Shown in pieces: positions 1,978-37,518 of a stretch of DNA of 64,000 nt; position 1 is the first letter of the stretch, and each line of letters starts with the position of its first letter. The position numbers were made by a program, and so were the translations under genes. Origin of the DNA: an uncultured Gammaproteobacteria bacterium (lineage in GTDB: Bacteria > Patescibacteriota > Patescibacteriia > UBA1558 > 2-01-FULL-52-15); assembly GCA_964402565.1 (NCBI GenBank), contig CAYOCJ010000001.1:160079-224078 (forward strand). Direction: 5' to 3'. Under the pieces are notes generated by a model. It did not search any database. It worked only from the letters and a program-made list of their open reading frames with translations, and was not told the DNA's origin.

Positions 1978-3357
1978 ATGCAAAAAAATACCATGTATGT
2001 CTGTTCGAACTGCGACGCCCAAGCTCCGAAATGGTCTGGGCGCTGTTTAGAATGCGGCAAATGGGGAACTTTGGCTGAGCATGCAAAGCCATTGGCGGCT
2101 GCAAAAGCTGCCCGCGGCGGAATCGCCGCGGGCGGAAAGTCTCGAACAGCCTTTTCCGCGGCTCCTGCCAAAGTGGTCAAGTTCTCTGACCTTGAGCAGG
2201 GGTCCGTGCAGCGTATTTCAGCCAAAGGATTTCCATTCGATGAGATTTTTCCGAACGGTATTGCCTTAGGCAGCCTCACCTTATTGACTGGTGAGCCCGG
2301 ATCGGGTAAATCAACACTTGCCTTGCAGTTGATGCGAACTGTGAGCTCGGAACATCAGGCACTATATGTTTCAGCAGAGGAGTCAGCAGTACAGGTAAAG
2401 GAACGAGCTAACCGCGTAGGTGCATTTGGCCAGCATTTTAGCATTACGGAAAGCACCGATCTTGAAGAGATCATTGCGACATTGCATGTGCAGAGGCCGA
2501 AAGTCGTTTGCATCGATTCATTACAAGCCATTGTGAGTGCAGAAGTCACCGGCGATGCAGGTTCTCTGAATCAAATCCGAGCCGTGACCGCACAACTGTT
2601 AGAACTTGCACGCAGAGAGCAGATTGCGGTTTTATTGATAGGGCATGTGACGAAAGATGGGACGCTTGCAGGGCCAAAATCGCTCGAACATTTGGTTGAC
2701 GCAGTGTATTACCTTGAGGCTGACCATCATAGTGCTTATCGTCTCCTGCGTGTATATAAGAACCGTTACGGCGCTTCAGGGGCGGTCCTGGTTATGCAAA
2801 TGGGCGGGGGAGGCATGACAGCCGTTGCCAATCCTGCAACGATTTTCATTCATAATTTTAGCCCTAAGCCAGGTTCAACACTGACGGTCACTGAAATTGA
2901 TGATCAATTTTTCTTTCTCGAAGTACAAGCCTTGGTCGCGAAAAGCGGCTTTGGTTATGCCAAGCGCACTGCGTCTGGTTTTTCAAAATCGCGTCTAGAG
3001 TTGCTACTCGCGATAATCAAAAAACAATTGCACCTCGATACAGACTTGTATGATATCTATATCAATATTGCCGGAGGCTTTTCAGTGCACGAACCAGCGC
3101 TTGATCTTGCGGTACTGATGAGCATACTCTCAAGCATGAAAGAGCAATCCTTGCCTCCAAAAACAGTAGTCTTTGGTGAGCTTGGTCTTTCAGGAGAGCT
3201 TCGTGTCGTGAAAGACACAGGCGCACGTTTGAAGACCATAGCAGAACATGGATTTAGCACAGTCTACTTCCCGCCGCTTGAGCAGAAAGTACAGAGCAAA
3301 TTAAGTTTACATTCATTTGCCTCTATTACCGAGCTGGTGAAGAAGTTGGGGTGGTAG
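1978..3357 (+). CDS. radA: DNA repair protein RadA/Sms
   Basis: N-terminal C4 zinc finger (CSNCDAQ...CLECGKWG), Walker A GEPGSGKST, RecA-like core, Lon-like C-terminal domain. ATG at 1978 lies just after the upstream stop. Confidence 0.9.
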   Translation: MQKNTMYVCSNCDAQAPKWSGRCLECGKWGTLAEHAKPLAAAKAARGGIAAGGKSRTAFSAAPAKVVKFSDLEQGSVQRISAKGFPFDEIFPNGIALGSLTLLTGEPGSGKSTLALQLMRTVSSEHQALYVSAEESAVQVKERANRVGAFGQHFSITESTDLEEIIATLHVQRPKVVCIDSLQAIVSAEVTGDAGSLNQIRAVTAQLLELARREQIAVLLIGHVTKDGTLAGPKSLEHLVDAVYYLEADHHSAYRLLRVYKNRYGASGAVLVMQMGGGGMTAVANPATIFIHNFSPKPGSTLTVTEIDDQFFFLEVQALVAKSGFGYAKRTASGFSKSRLELLLAIIKKQLHLDTDLYDIYINIAGGFSVHEPALDLAVLMSILSSMKEQSLPPKTVVFGELGLSGELRVVKDTGARLKTIAEHGFSTVYFPPLEQKVQSKLSLHSFASITELVKKLGW

Positions 3358-9402: not shown

Positions 9403-9482
9403 AGTTAGTATTTAATGATAGCTCTACTAATTACTTCTGGCGGACCGCCCTTTGGGCGAGTCTCGCCTGAGCAAAGCTCAAT

Positions 9483-14150: not shown

Positions 14151-14226
14151 TGGTGCGCCCGGCAGGAATCGAACCTACGACCTCATGGACCGCAACCATG
14201 CGCTCTATCCCCTGAGCTACGGGCGC
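14151..14226 (-). tRNA. tRNA-Arg with apparent anticodon GCG
   Basis: Reverse complement GCGCCCGTAGCTCAGGGGATAGAGCGCATGGTTGCGGTCCATGAGGTCGTAGGTTCGATTCCTGCCGGGCGCACCA. 76 nt cloverleaf. Loop TTGCGGT. Confidence 0.7.
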
Positions 14227-14318: not shown

Positions 14319-14843
14319 CTAAAATTTGAATAGCCGCCCAAAAAAGTCACTGGTCGGCTCTTCTTCTTTCTCAAGATCTTCGGGAAGGAAGTTCAATAAA
14401 ATTTCACGGATTTCGTTCGGATTGACATCGCCCAGTGGCACGCCGATATGCGGGCTGAAAACGCTTTTAGGATCAAAGTAAAGAGTCTTCACCACGGGCG
14501 GCTCATAGATAATAAAAAAGTTATTGAGCTCGGTATACGCATAGAAATCCGGACCAGCGATAAGCCCATCCTCGGTAATCGCAAAGTTATGAAAACCTGG
14601 TCCGCGCATTTCGCTGACGACGAATATGAGTATGGTGAGGGCAACGATGACTGCCAGCAAGTAATTTTGGTCGAAGAACGAATACCCGAGCAACAGGATC
14701 ACAATAATCGCCGCTAGAATATACCACCATCTGCCGCGTTCATGTTCATCATGTGAATAAAAATCCCATTCGGCCAATACTTCGCCGTATTTTTTCGATA
14801 TCTCGGGTGCGCTTTCACCTGGTCTATTCTTATCTTCTGCCAT
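14319..14843 (-). CDS. Hypothetical membrane protein (2 TM)
   Basis: ORF with two hydrophobic helices. No recognisable motif. Confidence 0.4.
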   Translation of the reverse strand: MAEDKNRPGESAPEISKKYGEVLAEWDFYSHDEHERGRWWYILAAIIVILLLGYSFFDQNYLLAVIVALTILIFVVSEMRGPGFHNFAITEDGLIAGPDFYAYTELNNFFIIYEPPVVKTLYFDPKSVFSPHIGVPLGDVNPNEIREILLNFLPEDLEKEEEPTSDFFGRLFKF

Positions 14844-14942
14844 GGAAACAGTATAGCATATTTTTCCTATAAAATCATTGACATCGAGCCATGCGTATTG
14901 TATTGTAAGTAAGCTTTTTCCTTGTAAAATCGAGGAAATTTA

Positions 14943-14957
14943 CACGGAGAGGTGGCT
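14943..14957 (+). repeat. 15-nt direct repeat of the tRNA-Ser(GCT) 5' end (CACGGAGAGGTGGCT)
   Basis: Exact match to 15280-15294. Lies upstream of the GIY-YIG gene. Confidence 0.55.
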
Positions 14958-15019
14958 TGCGCCCAAGGCGCACCCGCCTCGGGCGGGGAGTTTAGTCAGA
15001 AAGGCAATGAAAAGCGATT

Positions 15020-15277
15020 ATGTACTATGTCTATATCCTCCATAGCAAAAAGATAGGGAAACGATACATTGGCCAGACATCAAATCTGAAAAATAGAGTG
15101 AAGCAGCATAAAAATGGTAACGCTTCATTCACAAGCAAAAATGATGACTGGAAACTCATTTATTACGAAGTGTTCCTATCAAAACGTGATGCGCTCGAGG
15201 AAGAAAAATTCTTAAAAAGTGGTAAAGGTCGAGAAAGATTGTCCTTTTTACTTCAAAATACAATTGATATCATATAG
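15020..15277 (+). CDS. GIY-YIG nuclease superfamily protein (YhbQ-like)
   Basis: YYVYILHSKKIGKRYIGQTSNLKNRVKQHKNG matches the GIY-YIG core. 85 aa. Confidence 0.75.
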   Translation: MYYVYILHSKKIGKRYIGQTSNLKNRVKQHKNGNASFTSKNDDWKLIYYEVFLSKRDALEEEKFLKSGKGRERLSFLLQNTIDII

Positions 15278-15282
15278 TTCAC

Positions 15283-15373
15283 GGAGAGGTGGCTGAGTGG
15301 TCGAAAGCACCTCACTGCTAACGAGGCAGGGCGTAAAAAACCCTCGCGGGTTCGAATCCCGCCCTCTCCGCCA
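15283..15373 (+). tRNA. tRNA-Ser (anticodon GCT)
   Basis: GGAGAGGTGGCTGAGTGGTCGAAAGC...CTGCTAA loop...long variable arm...GGGTTCGAATCCCGCCCTCTCCGCCA. Confidence 0.85.
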
Positions 15374-15425
15374 GATATGTTTTTATCGGGCTACTCAAAT
15401 GCTATAAATCAATAAAACAATATTT

Positions 15426-16028
15426 ATGCAAACATTTTTTAATTCAAATCTCTTTGTTGGCTTGGCTACCATCATCACCGGAGCAGTGGCTATACTGGTT
15501 TACTTTAAACAGAAAAAAGATTTCAAAGTTCAGGCCGCAAGAGTCCTTCTGATGGAAATCAGAACTGCGGAGGAGCGAATTGCTCAGATAAAAGATAAAA
15601 TCCAGAATAATTTCACTAATGATTTCCCTTCAGTTTTCCCAACAAAGAATTGGAAGACTTATTCCCATTTATTTATTAGTGATTTTGATCAAGACGAAAT
15701 TAAAGCGATAAGCTCTTTCTACGATTATGGTGATTTGATCGAGGAATTTGCAAAAAGAAATAATGATTTCTTCTGGGTAACGACTGAAGAGCGCGCTCGT
15801 GTCGTCCAACAGAAACTGGCTGATATAGTTTTTAAAGCAAAAGAGCCAGCAACGTCTCCTGTTGATATAAGCACTCGCAAGCAAACTCTAAACGAGTTTA
15901 CTAATGATCCGTATTCATACACTCCTCAAAAGACCTTGGAGGCAATAAAGAGTTACACAGAAAAAGTCGGCACAATAACCACCACAAGTGCTGGTATTAA
16001 GTTAAAAAAAATAGCGAAGTTGAAATAA
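15426..16028 (+). CDS. Hypothetical protein (N-terminal TM, coiled-coil-rich)
   Basis: ORF between tRNA-Ser and the repeat of its 3' end. Confidence 0.4.
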   Translation: MQTFFNSNLFVGLATIITGAVAILVYFKQKKDFKVQAARVLLMEIRTAEERIAQIKDKIQNNFTNDFPSVFPTKNWKTYSHLFISDFDQDEIKAISSFYDYGDLIEEFAKRNNDFFWVTTEERARVVQQKLADIVFKAKEPATSPVDISTRKQTLNEFTNDPYSYTPQKTLEAIKSYTEKVGTITTTSAGIKLKKIAKLK

Positions 16029-16045
16029 ACTTGTCGCGAGGCGAT

Positions 16046-16064
16046 AATCCCGCCCTCTCCGCCA
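16046..16064 (+). repeat. 19-nt direct repeat of the tRNA-Ser(GCT) 3' end (AATCCCGCCCTCTCCGCCA), att-like
   Basis: Exact match to 15355-15373. Confidence 0.6.
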
Positions 16065-36372: not shown

Positions 36373-36459
36373 ATCATAACTACAATCATCATGCTGAAAG
36401 ATACTTTTTCTGATTATCTGGAAAATAAATCCTGGCAGTATCATGCACTGAACCACAGT

Positions 36460-36918
36460 ATGAACGTACTGTCTAAGAGCAGAGGATTTACGCTCATCGA
36501 ATTGCTCGTCGTGATCGCAATCATTGGCCTTCTCGCGTCTATCGCCATGGTTAACCTGAACAGTGCCCGAGGTAAGGCAAAGATCGCCTCAGCGAAGTCA
36601 ACCATGCATTCCATTCAGTCAGCCGCGGTGCTTTGTCAGGATGGATACAGCAGTAATATTGCCTGGAACACTATTGGAAACCTGTGCGCAAGCACTGGCG
36701 TTAACACCGTAGCAGGTAATAAGCCTGCGAATGGTACCACGGTCTGTAACTCGAACGGTGCAGCTGGTTCGATCAACTGGCCAGACCTGCCAACCGGCTG
36801 GAACTACCAAAACGGCTGTAACCAAGTTTCTGCAAATAGCAGCTTTACGTATAGCGCTACAGATCAAACCTGTATTATCACCTGTACACAAATAGCCTGC
36901 ACATACGCAGGTTGTTAG
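36460..36918 (+). CDS. pilA: Type IV major pilin (prepilin with class III signal peptide), copy 1
   Basis: Leader then G/FTLIELLVVIAIIG with Glu+5. The C-terminus has paired Cys. The alternative upstream start at 36391 has no SD. Confidence 0.75.
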   Translation: MNVLSKSRGFTLIELLVVIAIIGLLASIAMVNLNSARGKAKIASAKSTMHSIQSAAVLCQDGYSSNIAWNTIGNLCASTGVNTVAGNKPANGTTVCNSNGAAGSINWPDLPTGWNYQNGCNQVSANSSFTYSATDQTCIITCTQIACTYAGC

Positions 36919-36966: not shown

Positions 36967-37068
36967 GTTTAGTACTGGTCGATATGTGGATAGTTTATAA
37001 TTTAAATATCTGTTAAGAGGAAGACACGAGCTCGTTTTCTCTTAACCACAATGAATGGAGGTGACAGA

Positions 37069-37518
37069 ATGAACAAAAACAAAGGATTTACGCTCATCGA
37101 ATTGCTCGTCGTGATCGCTATTATCGGTATTTTGGCTGCGATCGCCATGGTTAACCTGAACAGTGCCCGAGGTAAGGCAAAGATCGCCTCAGCGAAGTCA
37201 ACCATGCATTCCATTCAGTCAGCCGCGGTGCTTTGTCAGGATGGATACAGCAGTAATATTGCCTGGAACACTATTGGAAACCTGTGCGCAAGCACTGGCG
37301 TTAACACCGTAGCAGGTAATAAGCCTGCGAATGGTACCACGGTCTGTAACTCGAACGGTGCAGCTGGTTCGATCAACTGGCCAGACCTGCCAACCGGCTG
37401 GAACTACCAAAACGGCTGTAACCAAGTTTCTGCAAATAGCAGCTTTACGTATAGCGCTACAGATCAAACCTGTATTATCACCTGTACGGAGACTGCTTGT
37501 ACGTATACCTCTTGTTGA
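37069..37518 (+). CDS. pilA: Type IV major pilin, copy 2 (near-identical to copy 1)
   Basis: MNKNKG/FTLIELLVV prepilin motif. About 420 nt (37081-37495) identical to 36481-36895. Diverges only in the last roughly 8 codons. Confidence 0.8.
   Translation: MNKNKGFTLIELLVVIAIIGILAAIAMVNLNSARGKAKIASAKSTMHSIQSAAVLCQDGYSSNIAWNTIGNLCASTGVNTVAGNKPANGTTVCNSNGAAGSINWPDLPTGWNYQNGCNQVSANSSFTYSATDQTCIITCTETACTYTSC

Follow-up and report, generated by a model that had tools for sequence, protein, structure and literature searches.

A double-hairpin module and a small GIY-YIG nuclease gene nested in a tRNA-Ser(GCT) locus of Patescibacteria: a candidate minimal homing-like element

The tRNA-Ser(GCT) gene in a 64,000-nt stretch of a Patescibacteria genome (contig CAYOCJ010000001.1 of assembly GCA_964402565.1; the whole stretch is referred to as the window) is flanked by partial copies of its own 5' and 3' ends, with a gene for an 85-aa GIY-YIG nuclease between the 5' copy and the tRNA and a 200-codon open reading frame (ORF200) between the tRNA and the 3' copy. 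The whole arrangement is best explained, with moderate confidence, by a minimal selfish element of about 320 nt, comprised of a conserved double hairpin (module H) and the GIY-YIG gene, which would be nested in the 5' part of the tRNA gene, together with a break in the T loop that may have captured ORF200. This explanation draws on features that were observed, namely the anatomy of the locus, its recurrence, the covariation within H, an insertion polymorphism and the intact catalytic residues of the nuclease. An earlier account of the locus, made from its letters alone (the sequence-only reading), had already proposed a homing-type GIY-YIG insertion on the 5' side; this idea was right and generalizes to a large family, and the finding is more interesting than first described. 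The part of that account that concerns ORF200, a mobile cassette at the tRNA 3' end, is plausible in outline.

Both repeats were confirmed to be real and non-random. The tRNA-Ser(GCT) was placed at 15283-15373 on the plus strand by both ARAGORN and the Rfam tRNA model, and therefore the 15-mer CACGGAGAGGTGGCT consists of three leader nucleotides plus tRNA nt 1-12, and the 19-mer AATCCCGCCCTCTCCGCCA of tRNA nt 58-76 (standard numbering), from A58 in the T loop to CCA. With up to two mismatches allowed, the only copies of the 15-mer in the window are the exact ones at 14943-14957 and 15280-15294 (0.07 matches expected from shuffled sequence; two or more in 0/100 shuffles). The 19-mer has exact copies at 15355-15373 and 16046-16064, and at up to three mismatches a third match appears in the other tRNA-Ser at 9482 (0.01 expected; three matches in 0/100 shuffles). 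An independent repeat scan of the window recovered both pairs, and the GIY-YIG gene and ORF200 are present in one copy each. These results agree with the sequence-only reading, which had pointed to the two exact repeats, to the improbability of their recurring by chance and to the 85-aa and 200-aa ORFs that they bracket. Both junction regions are also reproduced in independent Logan assemblies of two other read sets, one contig (L002) spanning a neighbouring membrane protein gene, the GIY-YIG gene and the tRNA 5' end, and the other (L001) spanning the tRNA 3' end, ORF200, the 3' fragment and a methyltransferase gene; misassembly is therefore unlikely. Apart from the short length of the repeats, nothing favours chance or an assembly artefact as their source, and this possibility can be practically dismissed, since it is refuted by the shuffle tests, by the independent assemblies that carry both junction regions and by the occurrence of the same architecture in dozens of genomes.

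The 85-aa protein matches Pfam PF01541 with 60.6 bits against a cut-off of 22.6 (E=1.8e-16), the domain covering residues 1-70. Across 34 family members Y5, G18, R26, H30, E61 and E62 are invariant and Y16 is nearly so; with a profile score above the curated threshold and the catalytic residues present, the protein belongs to the GIY-YIG superfamily. Its nearest solved relatives are the UPF0213 structures 1zg2 (8e-9) and 1ywl (2e-4) and the SLX1 structure 7wme (9e-4). Members of the family have 78-100 aa, and in the window protein, at 85 aa with the domain at residues 1-70, a separate DNA-binding domain for a long specific target was not found; it is by such a domain that the characterized free-standing homing endonucleases are defined. 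The G+C content (GC) of the gene is 34%, compared to 47% for the window, which is among the lowest 0.5% of windows. Small genes of this kind are annotated by the sources as 'GIY-YIG nuclease family protein', and the family is large (4062 protein clusters at 50% identity and E<=1e-10). A search of one genome per species gave 299 confirmed relatives in species-representative genomes, and the loci of 80 of these were kept for analysis; nearly all 80 are labelled Patescibacteria, and the few that bear other taxonomic labels are taken to be mislabelled bins. Matches of the protein to homing endonucleases in PHROG are weak (about 5e-6). A phage origin was dropped because viral contigs hold only one GIY-YIG relative and zero relatives of ORF200. 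Some predicted proteins contain two GIY-YIG stretches (P0246, P0251, P0253, P0285), and such fused or tandem copies are consistent with unequal crossing-over between stub and tRNA. Another locus (L007:3359-3818) holds a GIY-YIG gene of a different kind (99 aa), downstream of tRNA-Gln(CTG) and not upstream of a tRNA, with three other GC-rich hairpins before it and an ORF200 homologue directly after it; this gene may represent a second tRNA-linked GIY-YIG lineage.

A tRNA on the same strand is found no more than 30 nt past the gene end in 63 of the 77 evaluable GIY-YIG genes, and no more than 350 nt past it in 73 of the 77, genes being evaluable where enough downstream sequence was available. 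The linked tRNAs are mostly Ser (60, with all four anticodons), followed by Tyr (5), Asp (4), Thr (3) and Cys (1). Alignment of the upstream region to the downstream tRNA revealed a copy of the tRNA 5' end 45-100 nt before the start codon in most loci. These 5' stubs are 90% identical to the local tRNA, and for 45 of 53 loci the start of the duplication lies 0-1 nt from tRNA nt +1. The order of 5' tRNA stub, GIY-YIG gene and intact tRNA was found in most of the 80 loci, and the 15-mer of the window is one example of this family-wide trait. Promoter-like sites (at least 9/12) occur upstream of 38% of the stubs, compared to 10% of control windows. The right end of the element consists of 1-30 nt of unconserved sequence, the hairpins being confined to the left end. 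We could not find this element of about 320 nt (H plus the GIY-YIG gene) described: the literature searched on GIY-YIG genes in connection with tRNA, Patescibacteria or UPF0213 gave no account of the architecture, and an Rfam search at a permissive threshold, covering the window region and 12 related loci, returned only tRNAs and chance matches, with the stub-hairpin leader and the small 3' inserts unmatched. The 8 non-evaluable genes are on contigs that stop just after the gene. Such contigs, which end no more than about 110 nt after the GIY-YIG gene, were observed for 8 of the 80 genomes (L013, L028, L033, L044, L047, L061, L084 and L089), and the Logan contigs of the window's own strain (L001 and L002) break inside the tRNA. 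GIY-YIG elements seem to fragment metagenome assemblies, either via repeats or via strain polymorphism.

Module H follows directly after the 5' stub in every stub-bearing locus and consists of two 15-nt hairpins with the consensus NNNGCC-CNA-GGCNNN and NNNGCC-TNG-GGCNNN. In the window it occupies 14958-14987 (30 nt) and is followed by GAGT, which equals tRNA nt 13-16, and H is therefore a precise 30-nt insertion at nt 12/13 of the tRNA 5' fragment. The sequence-only reading had missed this module and the split that it makes in the stub. H is present within 150 nt upstream of 72 GIY-YIG genes, and the 8 other H copies in these loci are all inside tRNA fragments. The window itself has a single double hairpin of this type; three other matches of the scan are single hairpins that lack the GCC/GGC core. 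In two related loci (L100:1-640 and L107:3150-4010, both on the reverse strand) a variant of H was observed that has a CGC/GCG core instead of GCC/GGC, with the sequence TCCCGC-GGA-GCGGGA then CCCCGC-CTT-GCGGGG. This variant and a unit that lacks the GIY-YIG gene, described below for L100, show decay and diversification of the module.

To guard against circularity, H was collected again by its invariant cores alone, which gave 58 distinct sequences. All six variable outer pairs are Watson-Crick in 54 of the 58, 99.7% of cells are paired, and all six variable pairs change on both sides. Double-sided changes amount to 100 cells vs. 26.6 +/- 7.5 in shuffles (0/500 shuffles as high), and pairing falls to 41-50% when the 3' partner is slid by one column. 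The loops CNA and TNG are reverse complements of each other, and therefore H reads identically on both strands. This argues for recognition at the DNA level over a purely RNA role, and H probably acts there, either as a cruciform or as the site of a dimeric protein. A strand test on G-U vs. A-C mismatches gave 3-5 vs. 0, too few cases to carry weight. Pairing of the two H loops into one long stem was considered and rejected, because the middle loop positions do not covary.

When mapped onto ARAGORN secondary structures, 62 of the 64 mappable H insertions occupy an unpaired position or a stem/loop edge, a count that overstates the number of independent events because the insertions are related by descent. 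They fall at nt 8/9 (n=7), at the D-stem/D-loop edge or in the D loop (n=39), inside the anticodon (n=13) and in the T loop (n=3). In a stricter set of 53 loci the commonest sites are nt 12, 13, 14, 8 and 35/36, the tRNA sequence that follows H is 3-14 nt long (median 7), and 10-38 nt separate H from the ATG. About ten different sites are in use.

Evidence for mobility comes from the gene for a 174-aa membrane protein that lies next to the element (14319-14843). After nearly all of its relatives in 31 metagenome loci (L090-L120), just as in the window, comes tRNA-Arg(GCG); tRNA-Ser(GCT) is often found upstream, and tRNA-Ser(GCT) with tRNA-Ser(TGA) often on the other side. The membrane protein gene is resident and not cargo, and together with tRNA-Arg(GCG) it forms a stable syntenic anchor in otherwise rearranged genomes. 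Three of these loci (L104, L107 and L100) are mutually close, sharing 84-93% identity in the flanks and 99% in the tRNA. At the orthologous tRNA-Ser(GCT), L104 is empty, with a promoter (TTGACA-17-TATATT), a leader and the intact tRNA. The site in L107 is filled: after the same promoter and leader come tRNA nt 1-14, the H variant, tRNA nt 16-22, an AT-rich leader, the GIY-YIG gene, 19 unrelated nt and the intact tRNA. L100 is filled in the same way and has in addition a stub-H unit without a GIY-YIG gene, between the GIY-YIG gene and the tRNA. The comparison of L104 with L107 and L100 therefore identifies the stub beside the native leader as the old 5' end, and the functional tRNA as the copy with a new 5' flank.

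Presence/absence polymorphism, a mark of free-standing homing genes, was thus found in relatives of the window, and this, with the recurrence of the layout in most of the 80 loci, bears out the homing-type insertion that had been proposed from the 5' repeat. The gene stands free and not in an intron, as Rfam intron models are unmatched and the ORF is bordered by the stub on one side and by the intact tRNA on the other. The comparison with empty sites that the sequence-only reading had recommended was productive for the GIY-YIG element in relatives; it yielded no empty site for ORF200 and none in the window's own species. Look-ups of the exact GIY-YIG, ORF200 and membrane proteins returned only short contigs of the same strain and no strain-level empty site. 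Tandem units are present in L010 (2501-3108) and L021 (575-1140), and two elements per genome or locus in L051, in L025, and in L018 and L046, which come from one bin. Clusters of related GIY-YIG proteins mix Ser, Asp, Thr, Cys and Tyr neighbours. Taken from these comparisons of sequence, the evidence supports a selfish, homing-like element that would ride the tRNA promoter and spare the tRNA by partial duplication.

One possible alternative is that nothing here is mobile, and that the small GIY-YIG protein is a host enzyme tied to tRNA-Ser, e.g. in tRNA or DNA processing, with the stub and hairpins serving as a cis-regulatory leader. Such a role would be in keeping with the very conserved position upstream of Ser tRNAs across distant Patescibacteria, the intact ORFs with invariant catalytic residues, the covarying leader hairpins and the huge size of the family (4062 clusters at E<=1e-10). 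It is nevertheless quite improbable in view of the empty/filled polymorphism at an orthologous site, the five tRNA isotypes that are mixed within GIY-YIG clusters, the tandem and GIY-YIG-less units, the use of about ten different stub positions by H, the anomalous GC and the 8 of 80 contigs that stop just after the gene. An RNA-level role has also to be weighed, in which H would be a short intron-like tRNA element and the GIY-YIG protein its associated endonuclease, as in the transposing introns of archaeal tRNAs. The almost exclusive occurrence of H at unpaired cloverleaf positions, the presence of the same short element in several tRNA species and the precedent of intron transposition among archaeal tRNAs (Fujishima 2010, as cited in PMC10714607) point in this direction, but the H-bearing copies are truncated stubs, a functional tRNA never contains H, and the consensus is identical on both strands, which an RNA-only role would not need. 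Moreover, among 87 cases a single one regained a tRNA call once H was deleted in silico, and this copy is without nt 1-4. We consider the intron-like reading highly improbable, and the deletion test rules out H as a functional intron, including a spliced intron of the archaeal type. Two further candidates were rejected, namely a group I intron (no Rfam match, and the functional tRNA is uninterrupted) and a transposon of the IS200/IS605 type (the only ORF is GIY-YIG, with no HUH TnpA, and hairpins are present at the left end only).

Table 1 Features of the tRNA-Ser(GCT) locus and of its neighbours in the window
Feature	Position	Strand	Evidence
sigma-70-like promoter (TTGACA, 17 nt, TATTGT)	14878..14906	+	promoter scan 10/12
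5' tRNA stub 'A' (CAC leader + tRNA-Ser(GCT) nt 1-12)	14943..14957	+	exact 15-nt copy of 15280-15294
Module H hairpin 1, TGCGCCCAAGGCGCA (TGCGCC-CAA-GGCGCA)	14958..14972	+	sequence reading, family conservation, covariation
Module H hairpin 2, CCCGCCTCGGGCGGG (CCCGCC-TCG-GGCGGG)	14973..14987	+	sequence reading, family conservation, covariation
Stub continuation 'b' (GAGT = tRNA nt 13-16)	14988..14991	+	comparison with tRNA
AT-rich leader of GIY-YIG gene	14992..15019	+	H end to ATG = 33 nt (family 10-38 nt)
GIY-YIG nuclease gene, 85 aa, catalytic domain only	15020..15277	+	Pfam PF01541 E=1.8e-16
Intact tRNA-Ser(GCT) including CCA; start 5 nt past GIY-YIG stop	15283..15373	+	ARAGORN; Rfam 58.3 bits
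672-nt insert, tRNA 3' end to duplicated 3' stub	15374..16045	+	bounded by 19-nt direct repeat
ORF200, N-terminal transmembrane helix + helical domain	15426..16028	+	120 homologues; AlphaFold2 model
Small GC hairpin TCGC-GAG-GCGA, 1 nt before 3' stub	16034..16044	+	sequence reading
3' tRNA stub, tRNA nt 58-76, T loop to CCA	16046..16064	+	exact 19-nt copy of 15355-15373
174-aa membrane protein gene	14319-14843	-	tRNA-Arg(GCG) neighbour in relatives
tRNA-Arg(GCG)	14151-14226	-	

On the 3' side, ORF200 had been regarded as an orphan, which proved wrong: it belongs to a conserved Patescibacteria family with 120 homologues (30-80% identity) in Nomurabacteria, Wolfebacteria, Gribaldobacteria, Magasanikbacteria and other groups. 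The AlphaFold2 model (mean predicted local distance difference test, pLDDT, 87) is all helical, with an N-terminal membrane helix and a helical domain. Foldseek found no match to this model below E=0.3 in the PDB, and ORF200 has no match in Pfam, NCBIfam or PADLOC and no informative match in PHROG. Its GC is 37% vs. 47% for the window, again among the lowest 0.5% of windows, and ORF200 is probably acquired foreign DNA. Homologues were found between hsdS and hsdR (L122, 2501-3106), between a Dam-type methylase and DUF6996/6997 plus an N6/N4 methylase (L125 and L126, each 2501-3100), beside an MvaI/BcnI system directly after the different GIY-YIG gene and tRNA-Gln mentioned above (L007, 4001-4618), after dnaK (L123), and between a NUDIX gene and a radical-SAM gene (L003). 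The restriction-modification neighbourhoods among these suggest a membrane-anchored accessory protein of restriction-modification systems and give a hint of a defence-related role. The earlier idea of an anti-phage cargo protein finds a hint of support in the frequent position of the family in restriction-modification operons, and none in PADLOC.

The 672-nt insert holds only ORF200, and neither an integrase nor a pseudogene or remnant was found in it or in the next ~6 kb downstream, in agreement with the sequence-only reading, which had noticed that no integrase is present. The genes downstream encode a methyltransferase, an epimerase, a NUDIX protein, glycosyltransferases and a protein of the F420-ligase family (PF01996). 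Conserved flanks that would mark a defined cassette are absent around ORF200, the nucleotide homology to other loci stopping at the ORF borders. In the comparison for an empty attachment site (attB), the relatives identified via the membrane protein next to the element share just 35-50% identity and have unrelated sequence in the tRNA 3' flank. Stubs of the 3' end that start in the T loop are present downstream of more than 12 other tRNAs in GIY-YIG loci, without an integrase, and a full H abuts such 3' stubs in L011, L019, L080 and L088. In L080 (2430-3735), from a Nealsonbacteria genome, a stub with tRNA nt 1-12, H and nt 13-26 is followed by the GIY-YIG gene, an intact tRNA-Ser(GCT), an unrelated ORF of ~240 aa and then tRNA nt 5-12, H and nt 13-93. 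This layout mirrors that of the window closely, with a different cargo ORF. The two H copies of L080 are identical, and the segment between them could therefore loop out by recombination. The small GC hairpin next to the 3' stub of the window is weakly suggestive of a decayed half of an H module, a 4-bp stem alone being not significant.

For the 3' side we favour a nuclease-provoked break in the T loop that would have been healed with capture of foreign DNA over an integrase island and over one composite insertion, both of which are live rivals. The sequence-only reading had interpreted the 3' repeat as the attL/attR signature of site-specific integration. The inserted foreign cassette that this implies is reasonable, given the 19-nt repeat and the 37% GC, while an origin by integrase is unproven, with no integrase within ~6 kb and similar stubs elsewhere that lack one. 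The island would have been placed in the T loop/3' end of the tRNA by a tyrosine integrase and later reduced to ORF200. It would account for an exact 19-nt direct repeat spanning T loop to CCA, where tRNA-targeting integrases typically have their att core, as well as for the low GC of ORF200 and the restriction-modification/defence-type contexts of its family, which are those of typical island cargo. We regard it as unlikely, since the 672-nt insert and the next ~6 kb contain no integrase or pseudogene, homology ends at the ORF200 borders with no shared island ends visible, ORF200 is absent from viral contigs, and similar T-loop-bounded stubs stand beside many GIY-YIG-linked tRNAs with inserts of only 80-185 nt. 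The composite insertion would have brought in H, the GIY-YIG gene, a replacement tRNA-Ser(GCT) and ORF200 as one block by recombination into the tRNA gene already in place; the two ends of that old gene, its middle having been lost, would survive as the outer stubs (nt 1-16 at 14946-14991, nt 58-76 at 16046-16064). Here too the odds appear rather low: the layout of L080 with identical H at both ends, the strongly low GC of both the GIY-YIG gene and ORF200 and the small GC hairpin that abuts the 3' stub speak for it, but most GIY-YIG loci have a 5' stub only and no downstream cargo, ORF200 homologues are otherwise unlinked to this GIY-YIG family (the exception, in L007, involves a different GIY-YIG type), and the outer stubs share no breakpoint, the 5' one ending at nt 16 and the 3' one starting at nt 58.

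A further type of insert was observed at the 3' ends of Ser, Tyr, Asp, Leu and Arg tRNAs, which are followed by 100-185 nt and then by a duplicate of their own 3' end from the T loop onward (L037:2866-2999, L085:2855-2990, L042:2859-2994, L065:2893-3026, L075:2929-3061, L079:2175-2307, L034:2908-3039, L045:4088-4221, L024:2566-2699, L029:2563-2696 and L076:470-598). The insert starts with an inverted copy of the T arm (e.g. GGGATTCGAA), which could pair with the 3' stub into a long stem that encloses a structured core of ~90 nt with recurring motifs. Rfam gave no match for these post-tRNA inserts. They may be a second small element or RNA, unrelated to the first, with tRNA T loops as its target.

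Among known systems, SegB is the closest documented analogue of the window element. SegB of phages T4 and T6 is a free-standing GIY-YIG homing endonuclease in a tRNA gene cluster (PMC2330249; PMC13096335). It is significantly co-located with tRNA genes, cuts inside them at RAWTSGAAC and drives recombination-dependent amplification and duplication of tRNA-containing segments (PMC13096335). By our reading, this motif is the reverse complement of the T-loop sequence GTTCSAWTY. In both cases a tRNA-associated GIY-YIG gene stands free between genes. SegB, however, is found in phages, whereas the window protein is cellular (Patescibacteria) and consists of an 85-aa catalytic domain only; the sequence similarity is limited to the GIY-YIG core, and neither a double-hairpin module nor a fixed order of stub, H, gene and tRNA has been reported for SegB. 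SegB has about 220 aa, with a DNA-binding part. UPF0213/YhbQ and Slx1 are the best solved relatives by sequence and are alike in their similar size and in having the catalytic domain alone; to our knowledge, no tRNA linkage, hairpin module or mobility has been described for them. The islands of tyrosine integrases resemble the window in that foreign DNA lies between direct repeats of the tRNA 3' end while the tRNA is intact, but the window insert is a single gene without an integrase, and duplication of the tRNA 5' end, as at the 5' side of the window, is not made by such islands.

In bacteria of the Candidate Phyla Radiation (CPR), the rRNA genes carry GIY-YIG genes within inserts that belong to neither the group I nor the group II introns and are mostly situated at stem-loop tips or bases (PMC11270868). 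These inserts share with the present element the bacterial group and the presence of GIY-YIG genes in stable-RNA genes; they interrupt the rRNA genes, whereas here the RNA gene is kept whole by partial duplication. The study of these inserts contains no mention of tRNA (PMC11270868). Short introns of archaeal tRNAs transpose among tRNAs (Fujishima et al. 2010, as cited in PMC10714607) and, to judge from that citation, are likewise short conserved hairpin-forming inserts at many positions of different tRNAs, but they are spliced and lie in functional genes, in contrast to H, which was found in truncated stubs and never in a functional tRNA. What appears to be new is the joint occurrence of a tRNA stub, a double hairpin, a mini-nuclease and an intact tRNA, while free-standing tRNA-associated GIY-YIG endonuclease genes as such are known.

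The promoter at 14878-14906 is probably the native promoter of tRNA-Ser, which now would also drive the GIY-YIG gene, because the orthologous promoter and leader precede the intact tRNA in L104 and the 5' stub in L107 and L100. The element would thus have no promoter of its own and would be co-transcribed with the tRNA from the tRNA promoter, the tRNA being released by RNase P. The nuclease may introduce breaks into tRNA genes at sites left unpaired by the cloverleaf (nt 8/9, the D loop, the anticodon and the T loop). Its kinship with UPF0213 and with the structure-specific endonuclease Slx1 fits the cutting of unpaired or branched DNA better than the reading of a long sequence, which is hardly possible for 85 aa. 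Repair of the break by recombination with an element-bearing copy would bring in H and the nuclease gene together with a new tRNA 5' end; the tRNA would be kept functional by this partial duplication and the old 5' end left as the stub. H may be the cis site of the element, either blocking re-cleavage of the stub or serving nuclease binding or autoregulation. On the 3' side a second event of the same general kind may have taken place, in which a T-loop break (nt 57/58) would have been healed with a foreign low-GC gene and the old 3' end left as a stub.

Several points weigh against this mechanism. Sequence-specific homing is doubtful for an 85-aa protein that lacks a DNA-binding domain. The intact tRNA beside the element still carries the presumed target, and the model leaves its sparing unexplained; nor does it explain the 3-14 tRNA-derived nucleotides between H and the ORF, or the origin of a matching stub at a new tRNA species. 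The empty and filled loci that were compared belong to a related lineage and not to the window's own species, and the common descent of H insertions, noted above for the 62 of 64, reduces the weight of their positions. No empty site for ORF200 was found among relatives, and no second case was found that links the ORF200 family to a tRNA repeat, its homologues being mostly in operons without tRNAs.

It is conceivable, if doubtful, that H and the GIY-YIG gene represent a new class of mobile element that targets shape and not sequence, in which an Slx1/YhbQ-like nuclease and the dyad-symmetric H would enter sites that are unpaired in the cloverleaf. Such a mode would imply that the substrate is extruded single-stranded DNA or an RNA intermediate. 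The duplication edges are exactly at the mature tRNA ends (+1 and CCA). Were this tentative idea true, the element, at ~320 nt, would be the smallest autonomous mobile unit known in bacteria.

Elsewhere in the window, a 300-nt direct repeat (36475-36774 and 37075-37374; 96% identical, with 600-nt spacing) is located in two adjacent small ORFs (36391-36918, 175 aa, and 37051-37518, 155 aa), and looks like a recent tandem gene duplication.

If the preferred reading of a selfish H and GIY-YIG element is true, Patescibacteria, which have some of the most streamlined bacterial genomes, would carry thousands of tiny selfish elements that enter tRNA genes from the 5' side, hijack the tRNA promoters and spare the host gene by partial duplication and not by splicing. 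This would explain the positions of the small GIY-YIG genes annotated in these genomes, and could explain both the breaks of metagenome assemblies at tRNA loci and the build-up of tRNA stubs and foreign genes there. An 85-aa nuclease and a 30-nt site would offer a compact test system for structure-directed DNA targeting, and the link between GIY-YIG proteins and tRNA genes would be extended from phage SegB to cellular genomes.

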